In this document: positions 1-57,173 of the stretch, in pieces
Position numbering within the stretch: position 1 is the first letter of the stretch
Layout of the letters: each line of letters begins with the position of its first letter
Origin: Gemmiger formicilis
GTDB taxonomy: Bacteria > Bacillota_I > Bacilli_A > RFN20 > CAG-826
DNA: 64,000 bases
Assembly (NCBI GenBank): GCA_963612735.1
Contig: CAVDWX010000010.1
Coordinates: 10,387-74,386 of the forward strand
Direction of reading: 5' to 3'
Program-made: the position numbers and the translations under genes
The notes under the pieces: model-generated
The model's input: the letters and a program-made list of their open reading frames with translations, nothing else
What the model was told of the DNA's origin: nothing
The model's database searches: none

Positions 1-324
1 AAAACGATGGGTGGACTTTGCTTGCCTGCGACACCATGTAAAGAATATGACACTCTTGATAATACTATTTCTGTTTTTAAACAAAGCGTTATTAAAGCGA
101 TGAATGAAAATTTAATGTTTTATGAATCTAGAAAGGCGAAATTATTTTGCTTAGGTAAAATCGATTTACATTTCCAAAATGGAACAGGTCGATCCACGGT
201 TTCACTTCTTAAAGGGAATAATGACCAAGCTAAAATGAGTGTTGATCAAATTATGACTGAAAATTATGAATATATTCGTAAGAATCTATCCGATATTCAA
301 GATTTGATCAATCAAGCTAAATAA
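1..324 (+). CDS. Hypothetical protein, possibly 5'-truncated; the frame is open back to position 1. It is the first gene of the plus-strand glycan operon.
   Basis: ORF 7..324; no stop between position 1 and 7 in the same frame; only 16 nt to the next gene; no recognisable motifs. Confidence 0.4.
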   Translation, partial: KTMGGLCLPATPCKEYDTLDNTISVFKQSVIKAMNENLMFYESRKAKLFCLGKIDLHFQNGTGRSTVSLLKGNNDQAKMSVDQIMTENYEYIRKNLSDIQDLINQAK

Positions 325-4151: not shown

Positions 4152-4901
4152 ATGCCACAAGTTAAACTTGAAGATATCAGTGTCTCATACTCTTCTAGAA
4201 AAAATAGCAATTATGTTTTAAATGACTTAAATGTTATTTTTGAAGATGGGAAGATTAATGTTATCTTGGGCGAAAGTGGTTGTGGTAAGACCACATTATT
4301 ACATTTAATTTGTGGCACGCTTAATGCTAGCAAAGGCAATATCTATTTTGATGATTTAGATATTACTAATTTCTCTATTCGCGATCGAAATGTGGCTTTA
4401 GTTAATCAAAGCATAACTTTATATCCCCATTTAAATGTTTTTAAAAATATCGCTTTTCCTCTTATGCATACCTCCGCGAGTGGAGAAGAGATTAAAAATA
4501 GAGTTTATGAAGTCAGTAAATTACTACATATCGAACATTTATTAACTCGTAAGCCAAAACAAATATCATTAGGGCAAGCTCAACGTGTTTGTATAGCTAA
4601 AGCGATTATTAAAAGACCATACGTCTTCTTATTTGATGAACCTTTTTCAAATCTTGATGAAGCTTTACGAATCGAATTAAGAACTGAACTAAAAAAATGC
4701 TTACTTGATTTAAAAGCAACATCAATATTTGTCACTCATAATATTAAAGAAGCGATGATGATGGGTGATTATATCTATGTCATGGATGAAGGACATATTA
4801 TAGAAAAAATAGAAGCTAAAAATTTCTTAGAGGCGAAAAGTAAAGCCGCGAAAGAATTGATTAAAAATGAGTTTAAAGATGAAAATGTACTCGACGACTG
4901 A
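4152..4901 (+). CDS. ABC transporter ATP-binding protein (249 aa) with a degenerate signature motif.
   Basis: Walker A GESGCGKTT, Walker B FLFDEPFSNLD, H-loop THN; signature motif is ISLGQAQRV instead of LSGGQ. Confidence 0.85.
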   Translation: MPQVKLEDISVSYSSRKNSNYVLNDLNVIFEDGKINVILGESGCGKTTLLHLICGTLNASKGNIYFDDLDITNFSIRDRNVALVNQSITLYPHLNVFKNIAFPLMHTSASGEEIKNRVYEVSKLLHIEHLLTRKPKQISLGQAQRVCIAKAIIKRPYVFLFDEPFSNLDEALRIELRTELKKCLLDLKATSIFVTHNIKEAMMMGDYIYVMDEGHIIEKIEAKNFLEAKSKAAKELIKNEFKDENVLDD

Positions 4902-5358
4902 TTTAGATATATTTAAGAAAAAATATCGTTTATTTTCGATTCTATTTTTCGTTTCTATATTTTTATTGATTGCTTTATTTGTTCTAAGTCTTTGCTTTAC
5001 TAATTATAAGAATTATTTATATTTTGAAATCATTGGTGGCGTTATTGCGTCGATTTTCGTTTTTATATGCATTTTATTTTATTTTAGATTGATCGATTAC
5101 AAACGTTTAATTAATCACTACCTCAGTGTCTTTAATGAGAAAAAAACTTATATCGATGGAACATTTCTTTCTCTTGGCGAATATATCATCACATTAGATG
5201 ATAATATCAGAGTTAAAGAAGCCTATTTTGAAGTTGATAATAATAAAGTTACTTATTATATTTTATCTATTTTTGATACGGAAAATTTAAAAGCTAATAC
5301 CAAATATAATGTCCTCCTCGCTGATCGTTTTATAAGGAGCTTTAATTATGAAATATAA
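4867..5358 (+). CDS. Small membrane protein (2 TM); the start is uncertain, alternative ATGs at 4879 and 4885.
   Basis: Hydrophobic segments FSILFFVSIFLLIALFVL and GGVIASIFVFICILFYF; overlaps the upstream ABC ATPase gene. Confidence 0.55.
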   Translation: MSLKMKMYSTTDLDIFKKKYRLFSILFFVSIFLLIALFVLSLCFTNYKNYLYFEIIGGVIASIFVFICILFYFRLIDYKRLINHYLSVFNEKKTYIDGTFLSLGEYIITLDDNIRVKEAYFEVDNNKVTYYILSIFDTENLKANTKYNVLLADRFIRSFNYEI

Positions 5359-5956
5359 TTTTCCTTATAAAGCTCATTTTCAAAGAAATATTTGGCTTTA
5401 CATTTTATTAATGTTAATAGTTACTACTTCTTATGAGTTTGCTATTAAAAGTAAATCCGCACTCAAAAAATATCAAAAATTTAATATTTTTGTGGCCACT
5501 AAAAAAGTGGATTTAGATTCACTTAAAGCAAAAATTAACAATTATATCGATAATGATACGATTAAAAATGTCGTTATCAATCAATGTAATCCCACTCTTA
5601 CTTCTTATTACACGATGTACACCACTTTTGGTTTAGAAGACGCTGATATCCTCATCCTTAATAGCGAATATATCTTTATTAATGATTTGAAAAGTCATTT
5701 CACTTCTTTTACAAGTGAATCGTCGTATTATGGTGAGACAAATTATATTTATAATGATGTCCATTATGGGATAGAGATATATCAAAATAAAAAAGGCCGC
5801 CTAACTAACTATATTACCTATGATGAAGATGCAACTTATTATTTATTCATCAATAAAAAATCAAAACATTTATTAGGTTTTACTAGCGATAGTGAAGGCA
5901 AAACGAATTCGCTTATAAAAGTGTTAGGAGGTATTTTTAATGAAGAATCAAAATAA
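5348..5956 (+). CDS. Membrane-anchored hypothetical protein (202 aa).
   Basis: RBS AAGGAG 8 nt upstream; N-terminal TM helix IWLYILLMLIVTT; no known domain recognised. Confidence 0.6.
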   Translation: MKYNFPYKAHFQRNIWLYILLMLIVTTSYEFAIKSKSALKKYQKFNIFVATKKVDLDSLKAKINNYIDNDTIKNVVINQCNPTLTSYYTMYTTFGLEDADILILNSEYIFINDLKSHFTSFTSESSYYGETNYIYNDVHYGIEIYQNKKGRLTNYITYDEDATYYLFINKKSKHLLGFTSDSEGKTNSLIKVLGGIFNEESK

Positions 5957-6863
5957 AGGTAAAAAAGTTAAAAAAGTCACCCCTGATTTTTTATTAGAAC
6001 AACTTCCTTCCACTCGAAGAAAACAGTTTTTTGATATTTTAAAAAATGAATACCGAACGCTTTTATTAATCGGACTCATCTTAGTGCTGTTTTTTATCCC
6101 GTTTATAGTTTCTAATATTTTTGAATATGGTTTTATGAGCGGTACTTCTGAAACAATTAAAAAAGCTATGGAAGCGGAAGGAAGAAATAGTGAAGAAATT
6201 GCTAGAGCTATTAAATTACAAATGAGGTCTATTCATCTTTTATTTACTGGCATTAATATAATTTGCTTTATGATTTTTTCTTTAGGATTAGCGGGAGTAT
6301 CGCGCGTTATAAAATGCCTTTGTTTTGGAGAAGGCGTTGTTTTTAAAAGCGACTTCTTCATCGGCATAAAAGAGTACTATAAATCATTTTTGGCGGTTGG
6401 CTTTTTTTCAGGTCTATTTTATTTCTTAATGACTTATACCGGAGCCATGCTAGACGCTTTAAGTAAAGATAATTCTAGTTTACTTATTGTTAAAGGTTTA
6501 ACGATTGGATTTTATTTTGCACTTCTAGTTCCTTTATTCCTTTTTTCGTTAGCGCAATCAACCTTATATAATGTGCCATTTTTTAAAAATATTTCTAACT
6601 CTATAAAATTTATTATAAATAAATATTATATTTGTCTCATTTTTTCTATAATAATTTATATGATATATCTATTGACTTATATAGTTTATCCACTCATTTC
6701 AATCTTATCTTTTGTAGCGGTTATTATTCTTATTGTCCCTTTTATAGAACTAGCGTTTCATTTATTCGCTTTATCGCTATTTGATAAATACATTAACAAA
6801 AATTATTACCCTCAAATTTATAAAAAAGGGTTATACATAAAAGATAATACAAAGGAGAATTAA
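5940..6863 (+). CDS. Polytopic membrane protein, possibly DUF624/YesL-like accessory component of a sugar ABC system.
   Basis: RBS AGGAGG; at least 6 hydrophobic helices; basic N-terminus followed by TM helices as in YesL-family proteins. The family assignment is tentative. Confidence 0.6.
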   Translation: MKNQNKGKKVKKVTPDFLLEQLPSTRRKQFFDILKNEYRTLLLIGLILVLFFIPFIVSNIFEYGFMSGTSETIKKAMEAEGRNSEEIARAIKLQMRSIHLLFTGINIICFMIFSLGLAGVSRVIKCLCFGEGVVFKSDFFIGIKEYYKSFLAVGFFSGLFYFLMTYTGAMLDALSKDNSSLLIVKGLTIGFYFALLVPLFLFSLAQSTLYNVPFFKNISNSIKFIINKYYICLIFSIIIYMIYLLTYIVYPLISILSFVAVIILIVPFIELAFHLFALSLFDKYINKNYYPQIYKKGLYIKDNTKEN

Positions 6864-6866
6864 ATT

Positions 6867-8501
6867 ATGGCGACTTTATCTTTTAAAAACATTAATAAAA
6901 TCTATGACAATCATGTACAAGCAGTGTTTGATTTCAATCTAGAAGTTAAAGACAAGGAATTTATTGTTTTTGTGGGGCCTTCTGGATGTGGCAAATCCAC
7001 TACGCTTAGAATGGTCGCGGGCTTAGAAGACATCACCAGTGGTCAATTATTAATCGATGGAGTTTATGTCAACAATGTGGTTCCAAAAGATCGTAACATT
7101 GCCATGGTTTTCCAATCCTATGCCTTATATCCTCATATGAGTGTTTATAACAATATGGCTTTTGCTTTGAAATTAAGAAAAGTCAGAATGCCACTTTATT
7201 TACCTAACCCTGAATGCGATGCGATTAGAGAAGAAAATAAACAACTTTTTAAAGCTATTAAAAAATTAAATCGTCAAATTAAAAAGAAAAATGAACCCAA
7301 AGAACTCGTTAATGAACGCGATAATATCTTTGAAAAAATTTATAATAACGAAGAAAAAAGGAAATCGCTTCTCGTTCAACAAACAGGTATCTCTCAATTA
7401 GATATCAAAGAATGCACTAAACTTATTGATATGCTTAAATATGAGATTGAACTATACAATAAAAAAATAGTTCATTTAAATAAAAAGCTCGATCAATATA
7501 CAGCTCGTAAGGAAGCTTTAAGCGCTAATGAAAATATTGATAATGAGAAGAAAAATAAAAGATTAGAAGAACTTACTAATGAAATTAATAAAATTACAAA
7601 TCATATCAATATTATTTCAGATAGCATTGAGCAGAAAAAGAATCAACTTACCGTTACTGAAACGACATTAAATCACTTCAAAAATAATGAAGTCCCATTA
7701 GAAGAATTAAGAAAACATACCGCTTATGAAATTGCGTTAGAAGTTTATAAAGCTGCGAGAACGCTTGGCTTAACTAAATATTTATTACGTAAACCAGCCG
7801 CATTAAGTGGTGGACAAAGACAACGTGTCGCTCTAGGTAGAGCTATTGTAAGACATCCGAAAGTTTTCTTAATGGATGAACCTCTTTCTAACTTAGACGC
7901 TAAATTACGTGTTCAAATGAGAAATGAAATTTCTAAGATTCATGAATCTGTTGGTGCGACAACAATATATGTTACTCACGATCAAACCGAGGCGATGACG
8001 ATGGCTAATCGTATCGTTATTATGAAAGATGGTTATATTCAACAAATTGGAACGCCTAAAGAAGTGTATAACGATCCTAGCAATATGTTTGTCGCAGGCT
8101 TTATTGGTAGCCCAGCAATGAACTTTATTAAAGGAAAATTAGTGGGTCATAATTTTGTCATTGATGGAGAAAAACCAATCAATATCAAACTCAGTAAAAA
8201 AGATGTCGATTTATTATCATCATATCAAGATAAAGAATTATATTTAGGCGTTAGACCAGAATCCATTTTCTTAAAAGATGATGTCAATAATACTAATCCC
8301 ACTAATTCGATTAAATTACAATGCGATTTCGCTGAAATGTTAGGATATGAATTATTGCTCTACACTTATATCAATGGTCAAAAGGTCATCGTTAAAACAT
8401 CCACGAAAGCGGATATTAAGACCCATGATTTCATGGAAATCGCCTTTAATAATGATATGATTTATTTCTTTGATAGCGAAACCACTAATAGAATTAAATA
8501 A
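6867..8501 (+). CDS. msmK: Sugar ABC transporter ATP-binding protein, MalK/MsmK/UgpC-like, with a large coiled-coil insertion in the helical subdomain.
   Basis: N-terminus VFVGPSGCGKSTTLRMVAGLEDITSG, Q-loop VFQSYALYPHMSV, then a ~190-aa K/E/N-rich insertion before LSGGQRQRVALGRAI, Walker B FLMDEPLSNLD, and a C-terminal MalK regulatory (TOBE-like) domain. Confidence 0.9.
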   Translation: MATLSFKNINKIYDNHVQAVFDFNLEVKDKEFIVFVGPSGCGKSTTLRMVAGLEDITSGQLLIDGVYVNNVVPKDRNIAMVFQSYALYPHMSVYNNMAFALKLRKVRMPLYLPNPECDAIREENKQLFKAIKKLNRQIKKKNEPKELVNERDNIFEKIYNNEEKRKSLLVQQTGISQLDIKECTKLIDMLKYEIELYNKKIVHLNKKLDQYTARKEALSANENIDNEKKNKRLEELTNEINKITNHINIISDSIEQKKNQLTVTETTLNHFKNNEVPLEELRKHTAYEIALEVYKAARTLGLTKYLLRKPAALSGGQRQRVALGRAIVRHPKVFLMDEPLSNLDAKLRVQMRNEISKIHESVGATTIYVTHDQTEAMTMANRIVIMKDGYIQQIGTPKEVYNDPSNMFVAGFIGSPAMNFIKGKLVGHNFVIDGEKPINIKLSKKDVDLLSSYQDKELYLGVRPESIFLKDDVNNTNPTNSIKLQCDFAEMLGYELLLYTYINGQKVIVKTSTKADIKTHDFMEIAFNNDMIYFFDSETTNRIK

Positions 8502-28696: not shown

Positions 28697-28831
28697 AATT
28701 TTTTCCTTAAAAAGATTATACTATCTAGCCCCCTTTATTCAAAGAGATAATATTAAATATTAAGGTCGATAATTCCACCTTTTTAAGATAGCAATATTAT
28801 GATAGAATACATTCGCTTATTGGAGTTAAAT

Positions 28832-29908
28832 ATGGAAGATAGTATGTATCAAAGGCTACAAACAGCCTCAAAGAGATTTGAAGAGATTGAAAACGAACTT
28901 CTCGATGAAAATATTATGAAAGATGTGGCTCATTTTCGTGAAATATCGAAAGAGCGGGCAGTCTTAGAACCTCAAGTCATAGCTTTTAAACAATATTTGA
29001 AAAATGAAGAAGATTATCAAGCTGCCTTAGAAATGTCTCATGATTCTGATCCTGAACTTGTGGAACTCGGAAAAGAAGAAATTAAAAGAATTGAAAAAGA
29101 ACAAGAAGACTTAATTGAATCCATTCGACAAATGCTCATTCCTAAAGATCCTAATGATGATAAAAACATCGTTGTTGAAATTAGAGGTGCAGCGGGTGGA
29201 GACGAAGCCAATATTTTTGCGGGCGATTTATTTAGAATGTATACAAGATACGCTGAAAGGCAAGGTTGGAAGGTTCAAATGGTGGATGAAAATCCTTCTG
29301 AAGCTGGTGGATTTTCAACTGTCTCATTTATGATAAAAGGTAAAAGCGTATATTCTAAACTTAAATATGAAAGCGGAGCACACCGCGTTCAACGCGTTCC
29401 TAAAACAGAAGCATCCGGAAGAATTCATACTTCCACTGCGACAGTACTCGTCATGCCGGAAGCGGAAGAAATTGATGTTCAAATCAATCCAAATGATTTA
29501 CAAGTCGATACTTATCATTCTCAAGGTGCAGGTGGACAAAACGTCAATAAAACTGAATCCGCAGTGAGAATTACCCATATTCCAACCGGGATTGTTGTAG
29601 CTTGTCAAACTGAAAAATCTCAAATTCAAAATCGTGAAATTGCAATGAGAATGTTAAGAGCAAAAATCTATTCAACTTTACTTGAAAAACAACAAGAAGA
29701 AATTGGCAATGAAAGAAGGCTTAAAGTTGGAACAGGTGAAAGAAGTGAAAAGATAAGAACATACAATTATCCACAAAATAGAGTTACTGATCATCGCATT
29801 AATTTCACGATTCAAAAATTAGATCGAGTCATTGAAGGCGAATTAGATGAAATCATTGAAGCACTCATTCATTTTGACCAATCTAGTAAAATAGCGGGAG
29901 AAAAATAA
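28832..29908 (+). CDS. prfA: Peptide chain release factor 1
   Basis: GGQ motif ([20 protein letters not shown]) and a PxT-type tripeptide (PKT). Start placed at ATG 28832, which has GGAG 7 nt upstream; the track ORF starts at 28799. Confidence 0.9.
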   Translation: MEDSMYQRLQTASKRFEEIENELLDENIMKDVAHFREISKERAVLEPQVIAFKQYLKNEEDYQAALEMSHDSDPELVELGKEEIKRIEKEQEDLIESIRQMLIPKDPNDDKNIVVEIRGAAGGDEANIFAGDLFRMYTRYAERQGWKVQMVDENPSEAGGFSTVSFMIKGKSVYSKLKYESGAHRVQRVPKTEASGRIHTSTATVLVMPEAEEIDVQINPNDLQVDTYHSQGAGGQNVNKTESAVRITHIPTGIVVACQTEKSQIQNREIAMRMLRAKIYSTLLEKQQEEIGNERRLKVGTGERSEKIRTYNYPQNRVTDHRINFTIQKLDRVIEGELDEIIEALIHFDQSSKIAGEK

Positions 29909-36158: not shown

Positions 36159-37265
36159 TGAAAGACATAGTCCTATTGAAACAAGAACTATGTGCTGTTG
36201 GTGAGAGAATCCATCAACTCGGGTCTTCTCTTTGACCTTGCTAAACTTAATAAAGATATTGAAGATTTAAGTGTAAAGAGTGAAAAACCTGATTTTTGGA
36301 GTAATCAAACCGAAGCTTTAGAAATCATTGCAAAACTCAACTATTCGAAAGATATAGTTGAAAAATATAGCCGAATTAGCGGTGATTTTAATGATTTAGA
36401 GGAATTGTTAGATTTGAAAGATGAATCGATTCTAGATTCTATTTCAGACTCTTTAAATGAACTTAAAACATTAGTTAAAGAATTTGAATTACAGATTTTA
36501 TTTACGGGTGAATTTGATTCTCTTAACGCTATTATTGAAATCCATCCGGGTGCGGGTGGAACAGAAGCTCAAGACTGGGCGGATATGCTTTATCGCATGT
36601 ATGTCTTATATGCTGAAAATCATCGTTTCAAGATGTCTTTAATTTCTTTTGAAGCTGGTGAAGAAGCCGGAATTAAATCCGTTACTATTAAAATAAGTGG
36701 CAAAAATGCTTATGGTTTATTAAAAGGCGAAAAAGGAGTCCACCGATTAGTGCGTATTTCGCCTTTTGATTCCAATAAAAGAAGGCACACTTCATTTGCT
36801 TCAGTCAATGTCATTCCTGAATTTAAAAGCGATAGCATTAATATTGTTATAAATGACTCTGACTTAAAAATAGATACGTATCGAAGTGGTGGTGCTGGTG
36901 GACAAAACGTCAATAAAGTTGAAACAGCCGTTAGGATTACTCACTTACCTACTGGTATAGTTGTCTCCTGTCAAATTGAAAGAAGCCAATTGCTCAATAA
37001 AGAAACCGCAATGAGCATGTTAAAAGGTAAATTATTTTTATTAGAAGAAGAAAAAAGAAAAAATGCCTTGAACGCGATTGTCGGTGAAAAGAAAAATATC
37101 GAATGGGGTTCACAAATTAGATCTTATGTTTTTTGTCCCTATACACTGGTAAAAGATAATATTACTGGTTATGAAGAAACTGATGTTAATAGTGTTATGA
37201 ATGGTAACATTGATGGCTTTATATTTGCTTATTTAAAGAAAGGAGCTAAAGAAAATGTCAAATAA
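36158..37265 (+). CDS. prfB: Peptide chain release factor 2, translated with a programmed +1 ribosomal frameshift: codons 1-25 in frame 0 end at CTT (36230-36232), an in-frame TGA sits at 36233-36235, and translation continues in +1 from GAC 36234.
   Basis: ATG overlaps the secA stop (TAATG). [25 protein letters not shown] then TGA. Classic CTT TGA C shift site with an upstream GGG SD-like element; the downstream frame contains SPF and GGQ motifs ([18 protein letters not shown]; [13 protein letters not shown]). Confidence 0.9.
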
Positions 37266-40637: not shown

Positions 40638-41948
40638 TTATTTTATATATCTTAAAAGGAAATCACATACACCGATAATCGTGAACCCTTTTTCATCTCT
40701 TGTTTCTTTAATAGGTTTATTGATAACTATTATTTTTTGTATTTGATCATTTAGTGCTAAATACGGTTTTAATTCCCTATTTTTTGTGGCCTCATTTGAA
40801 TAATCATCGCATACTTGAATGTAATACATCCTATTTCCTTTGACAGCTAAGAAATTAACTTCTAGTGTTTTTCGAATTGTCTTACCATTAGTGTCTTTTT
40901 CAAAAAAGTCGAAAGTACCTACATTAATTTTATAATCATTATATATAAGCTCGTTATAAATAACATTTTTGAGTAATTTGTCTGTATCAGGATATACGAA
41001 ATTCAATCGAGCGTTTCTAAGGCCTGTATCGACATAAAAATATTTCTTAGTTGATTTAATAATATTTTTGCCCTTTAAATCATAGCGGAATGCTTCAGAT
41101 ATAATAAAGGATTCAATAAATGAATTTATGTAAGAATTTACTGTATCAGAATCTATTTTATTATTTGTTTTTGCTTTATATAGATTTGTTATTTTTTGAG
41201 AGTTAATTAAATCTCCAACACAAGTTGCAAGCATTGTGCATATCTCATCTAATGCTTCATGCTTTTTTATCTTGTTACGATCGATGATATCTTTTAAATC
41301 TGTTGTTTCAAATAGTCCTTTTAAATAATTTTCTTTATCGATTCCTTCTTTTAATACTGCGAGCGGCATCCCACCGTATAAAAGGAAGTCATTTATTAAT
41401 AAATTTTCATCTTTGTATTTATATTTATGAATTTCTTCAAATGATAATGGCATAACGCGAATATTAGTGGCTTTGTCTCTAAATTGAGTCACAATATCAC
41501 TAGATAACATTTTTGAATTACTTCCTGTTATGTATAAATCAATATTTTCAATTGATGACAAATCTAAAACAACATCAACAAATGTAATCACAGTTTGATC
41601 TTTAGAAGATGCGATAACATGCTTGCCTTCACTCAATGATGGATTATGTAGTGTATAAACTTCTTGAATCTCATCTAAAATAACATAATAGAATTTATTT
41701 TTATCACTGGTTAGTTTCAATATATGTTCATATAAATAAATTGGATCTCTATATTTTGCATTTGATATTTTTGTTAAATCGAGAATGATTATGTTTTGAT
41801 TAGGTACGCCATTATCGATTAAATAATTTTTATAAATCGTATTTAACAAATAAGATTTTCCACATCTTCTTATTCCTGTTATAACTTTTGGAAAACCGTT
41901 TTGTTTTGATTTAATCAATAAATTTAAATATTTATCTCTAGATATCAT
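40638..41948 (-). CDS. AAA+ ATPase of the AAA_14 + DUF4143 family (orphan, function unknown).
   Basis: Walker A GIRRCGKSYLL, Walker B YYVILDEIQ, and a C-terminal DUF4143-like region. Confidence 0.8.
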   Translation of the reverse strand: MISRDKYLNLLIKSKQNGFPKVITGIRRCGKSYLLNTIYKNYLIDNGVPNQNIIILDLTKISNAKYRDPIYLYEHILKLTSDKNKFYYVILDEIQEVYTLHNPSLSEGKHVIASSKDQTVITFVDVVLDLSSIENIDLYITGSNSKMLSSDIVTQFRDKATNIRVMPLSFEEIHKYKYKDENLLINDFLLYGGMPLAVLKEGIDKENYLKGLFETTDLKDIIDRNKIKKHEALDEICTMLATCVGDLINSQKITNLYKAKTNNKIDSDTVNSYINSFIESFIISEAFRYDLKGKNIIKSTKKYFYVDTGLRNARLNFVYPDTDKLLKNVIYNELIYNDYKINVGTFDFFEKDTNGKTIRKTLEVNFLAVKGNRMYYIQVCDDYSNEATKNRELKPYLALNDQIQKIIVINKPIKETRDEKGFTIIGVCDFLLRYIK

Positions 41949-42029
41949 GTAATCCTCTTTTTAGTGTATATACACATTTTTTCCTAATATATTTTAGGAA
42001 TAGAATTTGAATCAATAGTGGTAAAAATA

Positions 42030-42065
42030 AACAAAAAGGCTGTCAATGTTTTACAGCCTATTTTG
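42030..42065 (-). terminator. Rho-independent terminator for the minus-strand DUF308 gene (hairpin flanked by A- and T-runs).
   Basis: AGGCTGTcaatgttttACAGCCT with acaaaaa on the 5' side and ATTTTG on the 3' side. Confidence 0.7.
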
Positions 42066-42087
42066 ATTAATTTAATAGGTCTAATAC

Positions 42088-42855
42088 CTATTTATTTTCT
42101 ATCTGTTTTGGACTATCTTCACTATTAGTGACATCAATAACATCTGGATTGCTATCGCTATTAGTTGAGGCGTTCTTTTTCTTTTTCTTCTTCTTTTCTT
42201 TGCCTTTTTTAACATTATTACTAATAGAGGTGGAGTTATTATGTCCACTATTAGGTTTTAAGTTTCCGTATATACCATAGCCAAGATTTAATAAACCAAA
42301 GATACAGATGGCTAAACCCACTATCATGTAGATGGCTTCTTTTGCTTTTTCTTGGTATATAAAAATTAAAATTCCGCCAACGACACAAATGACGCCTAAG
42401 ACAAAATTCCAAATCATGATCCCAACATTTAATGGTTTAGTTGTACAGGCGACAATTATACCTTTAAGAATACATATGCCTCCATAGGAGAGGAATAAGA
42501 TAGCAAAGGTATTGATCAAAAATGTCGATAAACTGCCTGAGTTTCCTTTACTTGTTGAGATGCATAATGTCACGCCTAGTGCAATGCAAATTGAAGCATA
42601 CACTAAGGAAGAGGAGAATAACTCATTTGGATGAAGTAACAAGCTTATGCAAATGTAAAGACCACCGATAATGAATAAGCATATGGCAACAAGAATGCTG
42701 AGATAAGTATCTAATTTATCATGATTATTAGCCGCTAAAACAACAACAATAATGCCAACGATAATCATTAATGTTCCGACTACTATTTGCATCCATTTAT
42801 TATTACTAAAGAATTTTTTCATAACTTTATTTTTCCTTTCTTTATTAATATACAT
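42088..42855 (-). CDS. DUF308/HdeD-like membrane protein with a C-terminal poly-lysine tail.
   Basis: Six predicted TM helices with GxxxG-rich repeats; C-terminus KKGKEKKKKKKKNAS encoded by an AAG/AAA tract; paralog of 51159..51746. Confidence 0.72.
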   Translation of the reverse strand: MYINKERKNKVMKKFFSNNKWMQIVVGTLMIIVGIIVVVLAANNHDKLDTYLSILVAICLFIIGGLYICISLLLHPNELFSSSLVYASICIALGVTLCISTSKGNSGSLSTFLINTFAILFLSYGGICILKGIIVACTTKPLNVGIMIWNFVLGVICVVGGILIFIYQEKAKEAIYMIVGLAICIFGLLNLGYGIYGNLKPNSGHNNSTSISNNVKKGKEKKKKKKKNASTNSDSNPDVIDVTNSEDSPKQIENK

Positions 42856-43332
42856 TCTTTTAATTCATTCGTTAATGTCATTTTCTTACTTTTTTGTAGT
42901 TCTTAGAACTTACAAAGTAGATTAGTTTGGATTTCACACACCTCTTTATTAAAACCAAATAATAAATAGCGTATTTTCAAATACAGTTTTCTTTTTAAAT
43001 TGTTGCATTGTTTATAGACTCTTTCATTGGATTATATTGATTACATCAGCTTATTTTATAAATTGTGTACTTAATCCACTTTTAGATGCAGAATTCTTGT
43101 TAAGAACTCAATAAGCTAAAAACGCTCCTAATCAAATTTATTATTCTAACAAGGACAAGATAAAAAATGTCTAGTACTCTTCTTAACTCAATAAAATTTT
43201 ATAAATTGAATTCATCAGTTTTTCTTTCTTTAATAAGCTTTTAAGAAAGCAATATTTTTTAACTTTTCTGCTATCTTTTCATATCTAGAGGACTATAATA
43301 ATTGCCGTTTGTGAAAGAAGGCCTATGAAATT

Positions 43333-44727
43333 ATGAATACTAAAGATATGACAAAAGGCAATTCGTTTATTATCATCTTGTTATTCGCAATACCAATGGT
43401 ATTATCGGTTACCTTACAACAATTATATAACCTTGCTGATAATTTTATTGCTGGACATTTTATCAGCTCAGTAGATAGCTTTAATGCAGTTGGAATTGTT
43501 TATCCTATCACTGTTGTCTTTTTAGATATAGCTGTTGGATTTGGAGTTGGATGTGGAGTTATAAGCGCTAGATATTTTGGTGGGAAAGACTTCATTTCTG
43601 TTAAAAAGTGCGCAAAAGTTGGCTTAATTGGAACGATTTGCTTAGGACTTATCGTTACTGCGATTGGTTTTGGAATCATTTATCCTCTATTAAAAGGAAT
43701 GATTGATAGCAAGAATGGGCAAGGATGTTTTAATGAAGCTTTGTATTATATGCTCATCTATATTGGCGGCGTTATATTTCTTTTTATCTATAATTACGCG
43801 ATGTATATGTTTCAATCGTTTGGCAATTCTAAAACGCCCTTATATTTTTTAATCTTTTCAACCTTGCTTAATGTGGGATTAGATTTATTATTTGTGGTCC
43901 CTATTAAATTCAATAGTGCTGGTTTAGCCCTTGGCACCGTCATTTCGGAAGCTATCGCTGCGATATTATCAGTTATGGTTTTATTTAAAAACATTAATAA
44001 GATGCATGAGGTCAAAATTAAAGGTTTTGATAAACCTATTTTTAAAGAGATTGTTTCTGTTGCAATTCCTAGCATTTTACAAGGCTTATTTATCTCCATT
44101 GGCGGTGTATTAATTACAACAATTCTTACTAATGTTGGTGGAAATGATGTGGCAGGTGGATATTCTGCAGCCTATAAAATTTGTTATATTGCTATCAATA
44201 TTTTTACTGTCCTATGCAATGCTTTATGCAATTTCGTTTCGCAAAACGTTGGAGCGCAAAAATATGAAAGAATTATGCATGGATATTTTTCAACATTGAT
44301 AATTTGCTTTGTTTTCTGCGCTATTTCTATGGCGGTTATTCTTCCTTTAAAAGAATTCTGGGTGAAGTTATTTTTATCAGAAGGCGATAACGCTGATGTT
44401 AAAACCATTATACATTCTGGATCATTATTTATTACGTGTGTTGTTCCCTTTTTCTTCTTAATGGTTATTAAGATTCCACTTGATGGTGTCTTAAAAGGGT
44501 CAATGGATATGTTCGGTTTTACTCTTGGCACATCAGTTGACTTAGCAGTTCGTGTCTTAGCTGCTTTGATACTTGGTAATCTTTATGGCTATGAAGGCGT
44601 TTTCTTTGCGTGGCCGTTAGGATGGGCTGTTGGAGCAGTAATTTCAATTGTTATGTTCTTTGTTGGAAGATGGAAAAAGAAATGTCACTATCCAGTGGGA
44701 ATGAAACTTATTGTGAAAAATAGTTAA
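43333..44727 (+). CDS. MATE-family multidrug/oligosaccharide efflux transporter.
   Basis: 12-TM protein with N-terminus FAIPMVLSVTLQQLYNLADNFIAGHF, typical of MATE (NorM/DinF) proteins; 464 aa. Confidence 0.88.
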   Translation: MNTKDMTKGNSFIIILLFAIPMVLSVTLQQLYNLADNFIAGHFISSVDSFNAVGIVYPITVVFLDIAVGFGVGCGVISARYFGGKDFISVKKCAKVGLIGTICLGLIVTAIGFGIIYPLLKGMIDSKNGQGCFNEALYYMLIYIGGVIFLFIYNYAMYMFQSFGNSKTPLYFLIFSTLLNVGLDLLFVVPIKFNSAGLALGTVISEAIAAILSVMVLFKNINKMHEVKIKGFDKPIFKEIVSVAIPSILQGLFISIGGVLITTILTNVGGNDVAGGYSAAYKICYIAINIFTVLCNALCNFVSQNVGAQKYERIMHGYFSTLIICFVFCAISMAVILPLKEFWVKLFLSEGDNADVKTIIHSGSLFITCVVPFFFLMVIKIPLDGVLKGSMDMFGFTLGTSVDLAVRVLAALILGNLYGYEGVFFAWPLGWAVGAVISIVMFFVGRWKKKCHYPVGMKLIVKNS

Positions 44728-44773
44728 AACTAAATCGACCGACTTTTTTAGTGCCTATATTTTACTTTTTTCC

Positions 44774-44810
44774 TTGGTGCATCTTTGGTGCATTTTTTGG
44801 TGCAAATTAT
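44774..44810 (+). repeat. 37-bp element holding three copies of TTGGTGCA (copy A), 42 nt upstream of the Schlafen-like gene.
   Basis: TTGGTGCAtctTTGGTGCAtttttTGGTGCAaattat; matches 46278..46314 at 36 of 37 positions. Confidence 0.85.
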
Positions 44811-44851
44811 CAAAAATATGATACAATTGTATATAGAAATAGGAGTTAAAA

Positions 44852-46276
44852 ATGTCATTGCCCACAAATATTAATAAGATTTTAAACCCTGACATTGTTG
44901 AAAGTGTTCGTGTTGAATTAAAAGAAGGTTGGAACCCTCAATCTATTCTTCATACAATATGTGCTTTCGCTAATGATATCGATAATTTTTATGGTGGATA
45001 TATTATTCTAGGTATTAAAGATAATAAAGAAGTTATTGGTTTTGATAGATCCAAATTTGACGAACTTCAAAAAGATGTTATTAGATACTGTAAAAAATGT
45101 CTTGAGCCATCATATGAACCTGTCATTGATATCGTTAAATATGTTGATAAAGATGTCGTTGTTTTGTGGTGTCCATCTGGTGAACAAAAACCTTATAAAT
45201 GTTATGAAGATGTCTATACAAGTAAGAGTGAAACGCGCTTTCAAACATATATTAGAAAAGGTTCATTAACTATTATTACTTCTCATGCAGAAGAAAAAGA
45301 ACTTTATAATATTGGCAACTTCATCCCTTTTGATGATCGCGTTAATTATAAATACGATCTAAGTGTGATTGATAAGGATATTGTAAGAGAGTATTTAAGA
45401 AAAGTTGATTCCAATCTATTACTTAATTTTAATAGCCACAGTTTAGAACAAATTTTGTTTGATTTAAGAGTTTTATCTGGACCAATCGAACATTTATGTC
45501 CTAAAAATATAGCTCTATTGATGTTTACAGATAACCCATCTTTATATATCCCGTATTCTTATATTGAAGTTACGATTCTAAAAGATTTATCAGGAGAAGA
45601 ATTAATTGAAAAAACTTTCGATTCTGCCTTATTCAAACAATATGAAAACTGTATGCAATATTTAAAGGATAATGTCATTGAAAAGAAAATCGTTAAAGTT
45701 GAAGGAGACTATAAAGCAGCTACAATTTATAATTATTCATACGAAGTTCTTGAAGAAGTAGTTGCTAACGCTATTCTACATAAGTCTTATCAAATTGCTG
45801 AACCGGTTTCAATTAGAGTTGAACCAGATAAAATTGAAGTGACTAGTGTACCAGGATTTGATCGAACAATTAGCAATACAGCAATTAAAGAATTAAAACC
45901 TAAATCAAAAAGGTATCAATCTCGGCGCATTGCAGAGTTTTTAAAAGAATTAGGAATTGTTGAGGCTAAAAACACGGGCTATCCTCGCATTGTTAAAAAG
46001 AGTTTAGAAAATCATTCTCCTCTTCCAATTATTGAAATGAATGAACAACGTGATTACGTTACTGTAATTATTCCGATTAACAAAAATTTTGTGAATAATA
46101 ACCTTTCGTTAGAAGATAAAATCATTGATTTGCTACAAGAAAAACCTCTTACCAAAACTGAACTTGCTTTAGCGTTAGGATATCCACGAGTCGTTAATTC
46201 TATTAGTTATAGGCTTAATAAGTTAATTAAAGAAAACAAAGTCTCTATCAAGAGTAAAAAATATTATTTGATTTGA
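44852..46276 (+). CDS. Schlafen-like ATP-binding protein / putative transcriptional regulator (AlbA_2 + HATPase_c_4 + C-terminal winged HTH; COG2865 family).
   Basis: N-terminal AlbA_2 signature (VELKEGWNPQSILHTICAFANDIDNFYGGYIILGIKDN), HATPase_c_4-like (NAILHKSY..NTGYPRIVK), C-terminal wHTH (LTKTELALALGYPRVVNSISYRLNKL). Confidence 0.85.
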   Translation: MSLPTNINKILNPDIVESVRVELKEGWNPQSILHTICAFANDIDNFYGGYIILGIKDNKEVIGFDRSKFDELQKDVIRYCKKCLEPSYEPVIDIVKYVDKDVVVLWCPSGEQKPYKCYEDVYTSKSETRFQTYIRKGSLTIITSHAEEKELYNIGNFIPFDDRVNYKYDLSVIDKDIVREYLRKVDSNLLLNFNSHSLEQILFDLRVLSGPIEHLCPKNIALLMFTDNPSLYIPYSYIEVTILKDLSGEELIEKTFDSALFKQYENCMQYLKDNVIEKKIVKVEGDYKAATIYNYSYEVLEEVVANAILHKSYQIAEPVSIRVEPDKIEVTSVPGFDRTISNTAIKELKPKSKRYQSRRIAEFLKELGIVEAKNTGYPRIVKKSLENHSPLPIIEMNEQRDYVTVIIPINKNFVNNNLSLEDKIIDLLQEKPLTKTELALALGYPRVVNSISYRLNKLIKENKVSIKSKKYYLI

Positions 46277-46277
46277 T

Positions 46278-46314
46278 TGGTGCAACTTTGGTGCATTTTT
46301 TGGTGCAAATTACG
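46278..46314 (+). repeat. Second copy (copy B) of the 37-bp triple TTGGTGCA element, starting 2 nt after the Schlafen-like gene stop.
   Basis: TTGGTGCAactTTGGTGCAtttttTGGTGCAaattac. Confidence 0.85.
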
Positions 46315-46372
46315 GCGTAATACATAATATCGACATCAAGTATTTCATGTTATTATCTATATTTTATTATTG

Positions 46373-46408
46373 TGCACCAAAGCATAGATTATTGGTGCAT
46401 TTTTATTT
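46373..46408 (+). terminator. Inverted TGCACCAA-N11-TTGGTGCA repeat followed by a T-run: either a terminator-like hairpin or a palindromic operator built from the same 8-mer.
   Basis: 8-bp perfect arms, 11-nt spacer, then TTTTTATTT; the motif is identical to the direct-repeat arrays. Confidence 0.55.
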
Positions 46409-46469
46409 CCTATGAGGTTAAATAAATGTATAGATATTTTCTTCCTTTTAGTGGAAAATTATATTAGTC

Positions 46470-49400
46470 ATGAAATTAAGCATTAAAAATACGCTTTATC
46501 TTTCCATCATACAAAATAAATGGATAGATATTTCTTATCTTAATAAAAATAATGAATCCACCTCTTATTTCATTGGGATAAAAGATATCAATATTAAAAA
46601 GGAAATCATTTATTGCGATATTTTCAATCCATTTAAACAATTATTAAAAGATAATAAAGAAACATTCATTTATATCAATTCCATTCAAAGCGCTGAAATT
46701 ATTGAAGAAAGCTATTATGAAGTTCCTTCCTCTATCCTTAGGAAAATAAAAAAAGATGATGAATTGAAAGAATATTTACAAGTCATCAATTTTGATAATA
46801 ATATTTTGAAATATTTATCCGATTGTTATCGTTATGATAATGATCCGTTTTTAAAAGATATCGTCATGATTGACGGGATTGATTTGCATGTTCTTTCTTC
46901 CACTAATAAATACAAATTAAATGATAAACAATTTGAAACTATTTTAGATAAAGTTTTCAAAAAGAAAAAGAAAGATGCGGAAGCTATTGTTCGTTTCCAA
47001 ACCTTGGCTATAAATGTCTTTTCTATCGACATCAATGATAAGCAATATGTTGTCGCCTATAAAATGCTTAATCTCAATTTTAAGAACAAAACTCTAAAAA
47101 TGAGCAATAATTCTATAATTAATAAATCCTTTCTTATCAGTGAAGAAAAGAAAGTCACATTAGGAATGTATTTAGATATTAATCCTGAAACATTTATCTC
47201 TACTTTTGACGCTCATAAGGATGAATACATTGAAGGAATTAAAGCTAATTTCCATAATCATGAATTAGTCAATACTCGACCGACTATCTTTTTGTTGGCG
47301 AGAACTTTTTATAAAGATGTCGATATCACTTTTGAATCGATCCATCAAATGGACAAAGATAATAAATTAACTTTCCCTATAAAAGCCTTTTTTGGAAGGA
47401 CAAAACCCACTAAAGAGAGAACTAAAGAAGTTAATGTTGTCATCTTTAATCAAAAGAAAATAAACATTGATCAGATGAGAGTTATTTATAATTCTATGAT
47501 TAATCATGTCACCTATGTTAAAGGTCCACCTGGTACAGGTAAAACCGAGACCATATTTAATGTTTTATTATCAGCATACGCAAATGATATGAAAGTTTTA
47601 GTTTGTTCTAATAATAATCATCCCGTTAGCGATATTTATTTAAAGATGCAAAATTCGTTAACGGTGCAATTTGATAATCAAGATAAGCCGACACCAATTC
47701 TTTTTCCTCTTATTAGATTAGGCAATAACACTGAAATGGTAGAGACAATCGCAAAACTCAAATCTATTGTTATCTATATTCAAGAACATGCTAAGGTCAA
47801 TATTTCAGAAAACGCCACTGCTGGAAGTAAAAAGCGCTTTATGGAAACGTTTAATAAATTAAAGGAAACACTTAAAGAATATGAAGATAGCATTGATCTA
47901 TCAGAACGACTCAATATTTTAGAAAAGATAAAAAGCATGAGCGAGATTTCCGCTATCAATAACAAATTAGATGAACAAATTGCGACATATCGTAGTTTAC
48001 TAGAACGTTCTAAAATTGTCTCAGATGATGAAGTGATGTCTCTTGCTATATCAGCCTCAAATGATCGCAACTTCCAATATTATTTATATTATTCATCGTT
48101 AGCTAAATATAAAAAATTGTTAACTGAACCTTATAAAGACTTAATTAATATTCTTAACCTATCCGATGTCGATGATGCTGTTATGGAATTCAATCGATAT
48201 TTACGAAATGACGACAATTTAAAAAAGTTTTTACATGTTTTCCCGCTTGTTTTATGCACAAATTTGTCTTGTGGTAAATTAGGTGGAGCTAAACCACAAT
48301 TTGATTTAGTAATCATGGATGAAGCGGGACAATGCAATATTGCTACTTCTTTAATTCCTATTATAAGAGGCAATAATTTATTACTTGTTGGTGATACTAA
48401 TCAACTTCAACCTGTCACTGTCTTAGAAGATAACGTTAATGAATCTTTAAAAAAAAGATATGAGATAGGTGATGAATATGATTACATTCATAATTCCATT
48501 CTTTCGACAATGATGAGAAAGGATAATAATTCAAAATGTATCTTGCTTAGATATCATTATCGATGTGGTAAAAAGATTGCTAATTTTGTCAATAAACGCT
48601 TTTATAATGATCAGCTTAAATTATTAAATCAAAATGTTGGCGAATTGATTTACTATAATGTGAAAAATACTACTACTAAAAATAATCGAAACGCCTATAA
48701 AGAAGAAGCTATTCAAATTGCTCGATTAATAAAAAATAAAAAATATAAAGAAGTTGGAATTATCACTCCATTTGTTAATCAGGCCGCTCTTATCAATCAA
48801 TATTTATCAGAATTGGATATCAATGATGTTAAAGCCGGAACTATTCATACGCTTCAAGGTTCTGAAAAACAGATCATTATTATGTCCAGTGCCATATCAC
48901 TTAAGACTGGTTTTAAAACGATGGATTGGATCAAAAATAACCATGAATTAATTAATGTTGCTGTCACTAGAGCTAAAAGTAAATTTATCTTTGTGGGTGA
49001 TAAACAAGCTATTGATTTATTGAGCAAAGACGAAGATAACGATATCAAAATTTTATCTGACTACATCTATAGTAATGGAACGGTGATTGTTCCGCCTAGC
49101 GACGCTATTATTTCATACGATTTTTCAAATGATTCGAAAAATGAAAAAGATTTTTTTGAAACAGTTAGACCATACTTTAATCGAAGAGGCTCTAAATTTA
49201 AGATTGAAAGAAATGTTCCAATCATGAATGCGATTAAAAATATTAATCCCGAAGATTATCATCTAATTGGTAAGAAGGAATTTGATTTGATTGTTCAAGT
49301 AAGCAGCGGCTTATTTAATAAACATTTTCACACTATTGTGGTTTTTGAAATTGATGGTGGAGAGCATATTGGTAGCAATAAACAAGCTAAATTAGATCGA

Positions 49401-49571
49401 CAAAAAGAAAAAGTTTGTAAAAAATATGGGATTAAATTAATCCGTATTCCTAACAGTGCAGTCAAAGATTATGAAACCATTATTTCTTTATTTGAAATGG
49501 TGGTCAAAGGTTTAAAAGATATGAAAGAAGCGTTTTCTCAACTTTCTTTATTTGATAACGAAACTGTTTAA
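46470..49571 (+). CDS. Upf1-like SF1B helicase (AAA_11/AAA_12) fused to a C-terminal Vsr/DUF559-like PD-(D/E)xK nuclease domain, with an uncharacterised ~340-aa N-terminal domain; architecture is Hhe-like.
   Basis: Motif I VKGPPGTGKTETI, Ia VLVCSNNNHPVSD, II LVIMDEAGQ, III LLVGDTNQLQPV, V GTIHTLQGSEKQIIIMSS, VI NVAVTRAK; C-terminus FDLIVQ...VVFEIDGGEH...LIRIP. Confidence 0.88.
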   Translation: MKLSIKNTLYLSIIQNKWIDISYLNKNNESTSYFIGIKDINIKKEIIYCDIFNPFKQLLKDNKETFIYINSIQSAEIIEESYYEVPSSILRKIKKDDELKEYLQVINFDNNILKYLSDCYRYDNDPFLKDIVMIDGIDLHVLSSTNKYKLNDKQFETILDKVFKKKKKDAEAIVRFQTLAINVFSIDINDKQYVVAYKMLNLNFKNKTLKMSNNSIINKSFLISEEKKVTLGMYLDINPETFISTFDAHKDEYIEGIKANFHNHELVNTRPTIFLLARTFYKDVDITFESIHQMDKDNKLTFPIKAFFGRTKPTKERTKEVNVVIFNQKKINIDQMRVIYNSMINHVTYVKGPPGTGKTETIFNVLLSAYANDMKVLVCSNNNHPVSDIYLKMQNSLTVQFDNQDKPTPILFPLIRLGNNTEMVETIAKLKSIVIYIQEHAKVNISENATAGSKKRFMETFNKLKETLKEYEDSIDLSERLNILEKIKSMSEISAINNKLDEQIATYRSLLERSKIVSDDEVMSLAISASNDRNFQYYLYYSSLAKYKKLLTEPYKDLINILNLSDVDDAVMEFNRYLRNDDNLKKFLHVFPLVLCTNLSCGKLGGAKPQFDLVIMDEAGQCNIATSLIPIIRGNNLLLVGDTNQLQPVTVLEDNVNESLKKRYEIGDEYDYIHNSILSTMMRKDNNSKCILLRYHYRCGKKIANFVNKRFYNDQLKLLNQNVGELIYYNVKNTTTKNNRNAYKEEAIQIARLIKNKKYKEVGIITPFVNQAALINQYLSELDINDVKAGTIHTLQGSEKQIIIMSSAISLKTGFKTMDWIKNNHELINVAVTRAKSKFIFVGDKQAIDLLSKDEDNDIKILSDYIYSNGTVIVPPSDAIISYDFSNDSKNEKDFFETVRPYFNRRGSKFKIERNVPIMNAIKNINPEDYHLIGKKEFDLIVQVSSGLFNKHFHTIVVFEIDGGEHIGSNKQAKLDRQKEKVCKKYGIKLIRIPNSAVKDYETIISLFEMVVKGLKDMKEAFSQLSLFDNETV

Positions 49572-49607
49572 ATTAAAATTTATATAAAGTTTTAGGAGGA
49601 CAAAATC

Positions 49608-51080: not shown

Positions 51081-51158
51081 TTTCATACTTTTTTAATTCG
51101 ATAGTACTTAATCTTACCATTTATAGTTTCTATAATTATAAATAGGAGGAAGAATTTT

Positions 51159-51746
51159 ATGTCTTATTTTAAAGATAAACTCAAACAGTGCAAATGGGAC
51201 AATATTGTTATTGCTCTTCTTACTTTAGCACTTGGTATTTTATGTCTAATTTTCCCGCATGAAACAGGCGATACACTAGTTTATGTATTTGGTGTTTTAG
51301 CTATGGTAATCGCCATCTTGTTATTTGTTAGATCATTTTATATGGTCTCATTTCTAAGCGTTTATTCTCTTGCTTTAGGGATAGTTTTACTTTCGGTTGG
51401 CATTTTTACAATCTGTTTTCCAGAATTTATCAAAGCCTTGCTACCATTTTTCTTTGGTTTGTATATCGTTGTCGATAGCGCATCATCTCTTGCGGAATCA
51501 GTCCAATACGGTTATATGAAAGTCCGCGGATGGTGGTTATTAATGGTCTCATCTATTCTCACTATCATTTTTGGTGTGATTGTCATGATGTTTGCTAAAT
51601 TTAACGATGTTATGATTCTTGCTGGTATTGCCCTTATTGTTGAAAGCGTGAGAAGATTCATCTTTACATTTACTGTCGAATATAAAATTAAAAGACTTAA
51701 AAAAGATGTTAAAGATGTAATTGATGCTGAAATAATTGATAAATAA
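51159..51746 (+). CDS. DUF308/HdeD-like membrane protein (paralog of 42088..42855).
   Basis: RBS AGGAGGAAG; six TM helices; NIVIALLTLALGILCLIFP...GVLAMVIAILLF typical of DUF308. Confidence 0.75.
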   Translation: MSYFKDKLKQCKWDNIVIALLTLALGILCLIFPHETGDTLVYVFGVLAMVIAILLFVRSFYMVSFLSVYSLALGIVLLSVGIFTICFPEFIKALLPFFFGLYIVVDSASSLAESVQYGYMKVRGWWLLMVSSILTIIFGVIVMMFAKFNDVMILAGIALIVESVRRFIFTFTVEYKIKRLKKDVKDVIDAEIIDK

Positions 51747-51763
51747 TAATAATTTTAAGCGAT

Positions 51764-51793
51764 AAAACCACTTGGGAAACTGAGTGGTTTTTA
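51764..51793 (+). terminator. Rho-independent terminator after the DUF308 gene.
   Basis: AACCACTtgggaaactgAGTGGTT followed by TTTTAT. Confidence 0.7.
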
Positions 51794-51810
51794 TCTTATT
51801 GATTATTATA

Positions 51811-51862
51811 ATTTACTCATTTACCTATTTGATTTACTCATTTACTCATTTAATTTACTCAT
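51811..51862 (+). repeat. Tandem array of the octamer ATTTACTC (about 5 copies, some degenerate) just upstream of the second Schlafen-like gene.
   Basis: atttactc-atttacct-atttg-atttactc-atttactc-attta-atttactc-atttg. Confidence 0.8.
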
Positions 51863-51893
51863 TTGATATATTTTTAGTATAGCAATCGAAGAA

Positions 51894-57154: not shown

Positions 57155-57173
57155 GGAATTGAGGTAGACCAAA

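Follow-up and report, generated by a model that had tools for sequence, protein, structure and literature searches.

A predicted two-hairpin helical arm inserted into an MsmX-type ABC importer ATPase from a glycan-utilisation locus

The stretch of DNA investigated here (in the following, the window) comprises 64,000 nt of contig CAVDWX010000010.1 from assembly GCA_963612735.1, deposited as Gemmiger formicilis (positions 10,387 to 74,386 of the forward strand). Within a same-strand string of glycan-utilisation genes it holds an uninterrupted open reading frame (ORF) of 544 amino acids (aa), the product of which is an intact ATP-binding cassette (ABC) importer ATPase of the MsmX/MalK/UgpC type. 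Into its helical subdomain an additional segment of 178 aa is inserted, which is predicted to form an all-helical arm. We consider it highly probable that this arm domain is real, conserved and folded and that the MsmX-type ATPase bearing it is intact. For the whole statement, according to which the arm was acquired and acts in docking or positioning, we see about an even chance. The features and their coordinates are compiled in Table 1.

The protein is matched by both Pfam ABC_tran and Pfam OB_MalK, the latter with 45.5 bits at a cut-off of 27, and it passes the NCBIfam model for the UgpC subfamily (NF008653; 451.8 bits, cut-off 432). The MalK equivalog NF008233 is not reached (365, cut-off 568), therefore the protein should be regarded as a member of the clade and not as the orthologue of E. 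coli MalK. In a phmmer search of the PDB the top match was MsmX from B. subtilis (6YIR), which aligns in two collinear blocks: residues 1–109 of the query correspond to MsmX 1–109 (E 1e-40) and residues 288–543 to MsmX 110–364 (E 5e-80). This core is about 54% identical to MsmX across 365 aligned residues. When the full structural model was compared by Foldseek to MsmX and other sugar-importer ATPases, TM-scores (normalised to the target) of 0.89–0.94 were obtained; the sequence motifs and the C-terminal OB-fold regulatory domain are shared with MsmX, MalK, UgpC and MsmK, and the predicted fold superposes. The set of Walker A, Q-loop, LSGGQ, Walker B, D-loop and H-loop is complete and invariant in an alignment of 82 homologues (A1), with the D-loop SNLD (aa 341–344) and H371 located downstream of Walker B. 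Also invariant in A1 are R104 and E288, the residues flanking the insert. They correspond to R104 and E110 of MsmX, which are among the residues conserved in multitask ATPases (Leisico et al. 2020, PMC7658222). ATPases of this type serve several permease pairs and purify as monomers (PMC7658222). Judged by its sequence, the 544 aa ATPase is catalytically intact and should energise sugar uptake, possibly via several permease pairs.

Between the adjacent positions 109 and 110 MsmX has no residue, whereas the window ATPase has 178, and none of the MsmX residues is replaced by them. Since the two blocks are collinear and MsmX lacks counterpart residues, aa 110–287 constitute an extra segment. Its site is between helices 1 and 2 of the helical subdomain, past the Q-loop helix and ahead of the helix preceding LSGGQ. 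An initial annotation of this DNA had correctly described a canonical N-terminus and Q-loop, a stretch rich in K, E, N and L and then LSGGQRQRV. Its proposal of a MalK/MsmK-like ATPase with a coiled-coil insertion between Q-loop and signature agrees with the split alignment, which yields a clean insertion relative to MsmX and not ordinary helical-subdomain sequence, as well as with the heptad tests reported below. The interval given there, 7180–7770, does enclose the insert, but the length is 178 aa (7194–7727) and not about 190. The accompanying statement that normally about 30 residues occupy this position was loose, as MsmX has 51 from the Q-loop glutamine to the signature leucine. Placing the insert in the subdomain that couples to the EAA loops of the permease is borne out by the alignment, by the AlphaFold model and by the literature: no part of ABC ATPases varies more than the helical subdomain, which contacts the EAA coupling helices of the permease and rotates relative to the RecA-like core upon ATP binding (PMC6906923). 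Compared with the core, the insert is poor in G, V and A and rich in K, E, N, L and I; K makes up 15% of it (core 8%), E 13% (core 5%) and N 12% (core 7%). Neither flanking DNA repeats nor signs of a mobile element were found around it.

Table 1. Features of the insert-bearing ATPase gene and of the upstream importer gene; positions refer to the window, residue numbers to the 544 aa protein
Feature	Position	Strand	Basis
Complete ATPase gene, insert-bearing, 544 aa	6867..8501	+	ORF list, Pfam, NCBIfam, Foldseek
Insertion proper, aa 110–287, 178 aa, predicted all-helical arm	7194..7727	+	Split alignment to MsmX at 109/110; AlphaFold
Beta-neck entry strand, aa 106–111 (P109, Y111)	7182..7199	+	DSSP strand 106–109
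Hairpin 1: H1 aa 115–140 (26 residues, basic), H2 aa 145–168 (24 residues, acidic)	7209..7370	+	DSSP
R136-x-x-K139-K140, best-conserved motif of the insert, tip of hairpin 1	7272..7286	+	120-sequence alignment
Return to base between the hairpins, aa 171–174, including G174	7377..7388	+	Beta bridges at 171, 173–174
Hairpin 2, long antiparallel coiled coil: H3 aa 177–220 (44 residues), H4 aa 226–273 (48 residues)	7395..7685	+	DSSP, heptads
Length-variable distal tip of hairpin 2, aa 206–241, missing from short forms	7482..7589	+	Gap block
Beta-neck exit strand, aa 276–282, V-P-L-x-x-x-R	7692..7712	+	DSSP strand 279–282
Walker A GPSGCGKST, aa 37–45	6975..7001	+	Invariant in the 82-sequence alignment A1
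Q-loop glutamine Q83, followed by helical-subdomain helix 1 (aa 93–102)	7113..7115	+	Invariant in A1; helix from AlphaFold
Helical-subdomain helix 2, aa 286–300 (MsmX 110–124)	7722..7766	+	Alignment, DSSP
ABC signature LSGGQ, aa 313–317	7803..7817	+	Invariant in A1
Walker B and catalytic Glu, VFLMDE, aa 333–338	7863..7880	+	Invariant in A1
C-terminal MalK-type OB-fold regulatory domain	8106..8498	+	Pfam OB_MalK aa 414–467, E 1.4e-11; collinear with the MsmX C-terminal domain to residue 364
3' end of the solute-binding-protein (SBP) gene of the upstream CUT1 importer	1..324	+	ORF 7–324 aligns to SBP C-termini in loci L084 and L085

Two AlphaFold2 models were computed, one of the full protein from the 82-sequence alignment and one of the insert alone (aa 104–292) from an alignment of 36 sequences. 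The full model has a mean pLDDT of 89, with values of 90–95 for the insert in this context. Modelled alone, aa 104–292 reached a pLDDT of 97 and a pTM of 0.80 and showed the same secondary structure elements as in the full protein, which indicates that the insert is an autonomous domain. According to the models, it is a separately folding all-helical domain that bears two hairpins on a small beta neck of two to three predicted strands. A coiled-coil test supports the helical assignment: the hydrophobic a/d periodicity of the heptads in H1, H3 and H4 stood out against 5000 shuffles (52, 2 and 0 shuffles, respectively), while H2 was not significant in the window sequence (2056 of 5000) and qualified at the family level only, with an a/d hydrophobic fraction of 0.72 versus 0.28 elsewhere. 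H3 and H4 possess 12 uninterrupted core positions each, spaced by 3–4 residues and conserved over 120 homologues. The shortest forms of the insert, with four helices of about 25–30 residues each, would be compatible with an up-down-up-down bundle. Comparison of the two hairpins by hhalign as a possible internal duplication gave generic coiled-coil similarity only (probability ≤53% for any helix pair).

How far is this element conserved? From a full-length search of 5.8 billion proteins we took the 120 best matches, which are 453–577 aa long (the two shortest being truncated fragments) and 54–85% identical. All 120 carry an insertion of 140–209 aa at the same point when aligned with MsmX. Two divergent family members of 617 and 632 aa have inserts of about 250–265 aa, and another insert-bearing member of 488 aa combines a shorter insert with a degenerate signature; overall, the lengths range from about 115 to 265 aa. 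The identical protein is present in an independent assembly (L001). Assembly GCA_016648615.1 has two insert-bearing paralogues (534 and 511 aa) on opposite strands, with 1.6 kb between them; genes for a rhamnose isomerase, a GH38 enzyme and a fucosidase are located alongside them, and no permease genes were seen nearby.

Conservation within the insert is uneven. It is moderate in aa 110–190 and 250–287, and aa 200–250 are variable in sequence and length. R282 occurs in 120 and G174 in 119 of the 120 homologues, and both are invariant in A1. Near-invariant positions are P109 (117/120), Y111 (107/120), N114, R136 (103/120), K139 (113/120), K140 (118/120), I158, I180, Q260, V276 (105/120) and L278 (106/120). 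Distinct length classes exist: the short forms lack aa 206–241, the medium forms lack aa 222–229, and these gaps are symmetric about the predicted turn at 221–225, as expected of a hairpin shortened from its tip. Over the 120 homologues the mean charge is +2.9 for the basic H1 (range 0 to +7) and −2.9 for the acidic H2; taken as a whole, the insert has an average net charge of −2 (range −15 to +8). The ratio of non-synonymous to synonymous substitution rates (dN/dS) between the window and its 85%-identical orthologue amounts to 0.056 in the core; within the insert it is 0.08 at the base and 0.23 at the tip. Across pairs, the tip has values of 0.23–0.87 (0.6–0.9 in the distant pairs) versus 0.08–0.20 in the remaining insert, all of them rough because synonymous sites are saturated. 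By this measure the insert base is under purifying selection and the tip nearly free.

No Pfam family covers the insert, and in the PDB there is no solved structure of this ATPase family with an insert at this place; the full model matches only ATPases of about 360 aa from sugar, polyamine and sulfate importers, with a high target coverage and a query coverage of about 0.6. For the isolated insert no significant Foldseek match was found in the PDB, the best non-significant analogues being the LSD1 tower, p85 iSH2, the hairpins of HlyD/EmrA and SMC arm segments. The top one, the LSD1 tower, is a long antiparallel coiled-coil hairpin within a globular enzyme and a docking platform for CoREST; with E 0.04, a TM-score of 0.44 and a root mean square deviation of 14 Å this is an analogy of design only. 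An exhaustive comparison of the insert profile with 1.84 billion representatives at 50% identity gave 26 proteins at E ≤ 1e-3, among which all strong matches are members of the insert-bearing ATPase family or fragments thereof. As the profile finds almost nothing else, the arm seems to be confined to this family. A word-indexed search of the 5.8 billion proteins with the insert alone returned 0 matches. This has to be a false negative because orthologues with 70–85% identity exist (about 70% over the insert); the prefilter of this search appears to lose low-complexity coiled-coil queries. In the literature we found no description of this domain, nor of an insert in MalK/UgpC of Mycoplasma. With respect to the searchable literature, the arm is an undescribed addition to the MsmX/MalK transporter family, the core architecture of which is known.

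PADLOC reported anti-phage ABC/SMC-like ATPases (LmuB, JetC, AriA, PtuA), but these matches are partial and fall on coiled-coil arm segments (E 1e-8 to 1e-3; for the LmuB and JetC arms 1e-3 with the insert alone and 1e-8 with the full protein), and the mad3 match is generic for ABC proteins. The neighbours of the ATPase gene are genes for glycoside hydrolases and transporters, and a reading as defence system was rejected.

Inserted arms are known from other ABC proteins. When aligned with EttA (sequence verified against 4FIN), the Arm of the ABC-F proteins lies at the same site, between helices 1 and 2 of the helical subdomain. Published descriptions of this Arm are of a helical hairpin within that subdomain, and it holds a partner, the ribosome. 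It consists of about 45 residues forming one hairpin, whereas the window family has 140–265 residues and two hairpins on a beta neck. Furthermore, ABC-F proteins have two tandem ATPase domains connected by a PtIM linker, with the Arm in the first helical subdomain, and no membrane partner, and no sequence similarity to the window ATPase was detected. With its single ABC domain and MalK regulatory domain the latter is not an ABC-F protein; only the insertion site is in common. In SMC, Rad50 and RecN an antiparallel coiled coil exits and re-enters the ABC fold between the halves that contain Walker A/Q-loop and signature/Walker B. Those arms measure hundreds of residues and end in a dimerising hinge or zinc hook, and the proteins act on DNA. 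Hairpin 2, by contrast, has helices of 44–48 residues and an unconserved tip, and apart from the insert the window ATPase resembles any other transporter ATPase. Membership in the SMC/Rad50 type was likewise rejected, as Pfam SMC_N scores 18.7 bits at a cut-off of 40 and the tip holds no Cys hook.

The taxonomic spread was followed by a genome scan with the family alignment, in which universal core motifs were used as patterns; these find mostly MsmX genes without insert, which provide a negative control. Among 80 named genome loci the motif pair located 73 MsmX-like genes (some loci had none), all 73 with normal spacing from Q-loop to signature. The insert is present in only one of the 80 loci (L002), a metagenome-assembled genome (MAG) of an uncultured Anaeroplasma sp. 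Homologues of normal length occur in Acholeplasmataceae UBA4853 (L015), an Izemoplasmatales MAG (L020) and an Erysipelotrichaceae MAG (L051). The SecA relatives of the window, 82–84% identical, are labelled as 'Bacilli bacterium' MAGs. The suggestion of the initial annotation that large inserts at this point are typical of ATPases from the Mollicutes lineage thus finds little support: L002 has the insert, and L015, L020, L051 and a neighbouring 249 aa ATPase of the window itself are without it. Therefore, the insert marks an uncultured clade of Anaeroplasma-like and 'Bacilli bacterium' MAGs and not the Mollicutes generally. The MalK/UgpC homologues MG187 of M. genitalium and MPN134 of M. pneumoniae, from a wall-less low-GC lineage, measure about 585 aa, some 200 residues above normal. 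Among the 1.84 billion representatives, the insert profile found no protein of about 585 aa at E ≤ 1e-3; if an insert is present at this site in MG187 and MPN134, it is not detectably homologous. The window also contains two class-I release-factor genes with PCRF and RF-1 domains (28799–29908 and 36192–37265), tryptophan is encoded by TGG, and TGA serves as stop codon in 2 of 43 long ORFs. This is consistent with the standard code and speaks against a Mycoplasma-type organism.

Additional extensions were noticed in some of these relatives. The Anaeroplasma homologue (L002, 1480–3480; ORF of up to 666 aa) has two additions besides the arm, namely a Lys-rich extension at its N-terminus and, within the C-terminal regulatory domain, another K/E/N-rich insertion, which suggests that this lineage repeatedly adds helical segments to surface loops. 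Lys/Ala/Glu-rich C-terminal tails, absent from the window protein, are found in the insert-less MsmX of L015 (8001–9218) and in the insert-bearing protein P0145.

The gene string to which the ATPase gene belongs encodes GH123, a GH106-like protein and a fucosidase; just downstream, on the opposite strand, genes for a fucose isomerase, a rhamnosidase-like protein, GH20 and GH130 are located. In the syntenic locus L085, which holds the 85%-identical orthologue, two BPD_transp_1 permease genes and an SBP gene lie 7–9 genes upstream on the same strand and in the same order. Judged by this gene order, the two permease genes should be situated just outside the window. The ATPase can be assigned to a CUT1 importer locus since the SBP gene of the window matches the permease/SBP order of L085. 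The distance from the ATPase gene to the SBP gene is six genes, and that to the permease genes is larger; as in the case of MsmX, it is not next to permease genes and is located among glycoside-hydrolase genes. Directly upstream (4152–6863, + strand) lies the gene for the 249 aa ATPase, also of the MalK/UgpC clade, which has a degenerate signature (ISLGQ) and neither regulatory domain nor insert. Behind it come three small ORFs of 163, 202 and 307 aa, of which at least the third is clearly hydrophobic; none of them gave a Pfam or NCBIfam match. This four-gene module recurs upstream of the insert-bearing ATPase in the related loci L084, L085 and L086 and may constitute an uncharacterised transporter linked to the glycan locus.

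From these data we propose that an ancestor of one uncultured low-GC clade gained the arm in the loop between helices 1 and 2 of an ATPase that would serve at least the glycan-uptake system encoded upstream in its gene string. One arm would extend from each outer corner of the ATPase dimer, near the membrane face. Because it is rooted on the EAA-coupling helical subdomain, which rotates on ATP binding, the arms would project and swing with the ATP cycle, and they would not touch the catalytic motifs. Each arm may bind the cytoplasmic face of the permease or some other membrane-proximal partner and might in this way tune which complexes the shared ATPase joins, or its regulation, in analogy to the ABC-F Arm holding its partner from the same insertion site. 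Constraint would act on the neck, on hairpin 1 including the R-x-x-K-K tip and on hairpin 2 in its proximal half; the distal tip would be a free extension. A docking or regulatory surface, as had already been considered in the initial annotation, appears to us the most plausible function.

Several observations weigh against this proposal. A matching extension was looked for in the upstream permeases with nothing obvious found. The direction of the arm is inferred from the known position of the loop. The distal half evolves almost freely, and the dN/dS values suffer from the saturation mentioned above. Moreover, a composition of K, N, E and I is typical of additions to tolerated loops in AT-rich genomes, and the Anaeroplasma homologue has more such inserts elsewhere.

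These last points lead to a different explanation, by which an AT-biased lineage inflated a permissive loop with K/E/N-rich helical sequence that folds stably and has no specific function. The composition fits the codon bias of an AT-rich genome, and the extra K/E/N-rich inserts in the N-terminus and regulatory domain of the Anaeroplasma homologue fit as well. So do the wide length range of about 115–265 aa, the dN/dS of 0.6–0.9 for the distal tip in more distant pairs and the location in the most variable part of these ATPases (PMC6906923). However, base and hairpin 1 are constrained (dN/dS 0.08–0.2), R136, K139, K140, G174, I180, Q260 and R282 are near-invariant, and all 120 homologues have kept the insert, even at 54% identity, as have the two paralogues of GCA_016648615.1; the sister ATPase of 249 aa at the same locus has not been inflated. 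We consider such an expansion unlikely. Another explanation is a membrane tether, in which H1 and the R-x-x-K-K tip would bind anionic lipid head groups and hold a shared ATPase that hops between permeases at the membrane between engagements. Nearly every homologue has a basic H1, with K139 and K140 near-invariant, the loop is part of the subdomain in contact with the EAA loops at the membrane face (PMC6906923), and MsmX-type ATPases are shared between permease pairs and purify as monomers (PMC7658222). Yet the whole insert averages −2 and the acidity of H2 equals the basicity of H1, which suggests salt bridges within the hairpin rather than a free basic face, and beyond the a/d core no exposed hydrophobic or amphipathic stripe facing the lipid was seen. 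A tether is in our view distinctly unlikely.

Still less probable, and to be rated very low, is an association from arm to arm, a miniature of SMC/Rad50 in which hairpins of different transporter complexes or of the two subunits pair and cluster transporters or clamp the ATPase dimer. The insertion site would be topologically equivalent to the exit of the SMC/Rad50 coiled coil, the LmuB and JetC arm profiles match weakly (1e-3 for the insert alone, 1e-8 for the full protein), and the non-significant structural analogues are long antiparallel coiled coils. Coiled-coil composition alone yields profile matches of this sort, though, SMC_N stays at 18.7 versus 40 bits, and the tip, where SMC and Rad50 dimerise, is here the least conserved and most length-variable part, without hinge or CxxC hook. 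An artefact, be it mis-assembly, a frameshifted fusion or a recent mobile or intein-like element, is practically negligible: the frame is continuous, the identical protein occurs in L001, and the position of the insert is identical in over 120 homologous clusters drawn from many samples. The lack of flanking repeats and of an internal duplication signal and the purifying selection on the insert speak against it as well.

The motors of the MalK/MsmX type, the textbook case in bacterial sugar import, have been treated as fixed in architecture, consisting of the ATPase and a regulatory domain; a conserved, well-folded arm of 140–265 residues on the permease-facing subdomain would be a new modification of that interface. 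Sharing the insertion point with ABC-F and SMC/Rad50 proteins would mark this loop as a site at which the ABC fold is generally open to additional arms. The insert seems to be carried by common uncultured bacteria of low GC content whose loci for glycan degradation are large, thus the arm may bear on how one ATPase is shared among many importers in glycan degraders. As a practical matter, the insert is a marker for the clade. A more far-reaching idea, which we regard as decidedly improbable, is that the arm, rooted as it is on the subdomain rotating in each hydrolysis cycle, works as an ATP-driven lever and signals the transporter's nucleotide state to another machine or to transporters nearby. 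If true, it may recruit a regulator or a glycan-processing enzyme, or array importers at the membrane of a possibly wall-less cell, and a type I ABC importer would gain an output beyond transport.

Rfam and tRNA scans of the window gave no match. Apart from the genes already described, a cluster at 40638–53312 is of a type usual in defence or mobile islands. It encodes an AAA_14/DUF4143 ATPase, two HATPase_c_4 proteins (one of them with Schlafen AlbA_2) and a 1033 aa AAA_11/AAA_12 helicase with DUF2726. At 54310–58625 two [FeFe]-hydrogenase-like genes, the first with a PAS-like segment, surround a gene for a SpoIIE-type PP2C phosphatase. This may be a sensory hydrogenase arrangement, and the [FeFe]-hydrogenase-like genes point to an anaerobic lifestyle.

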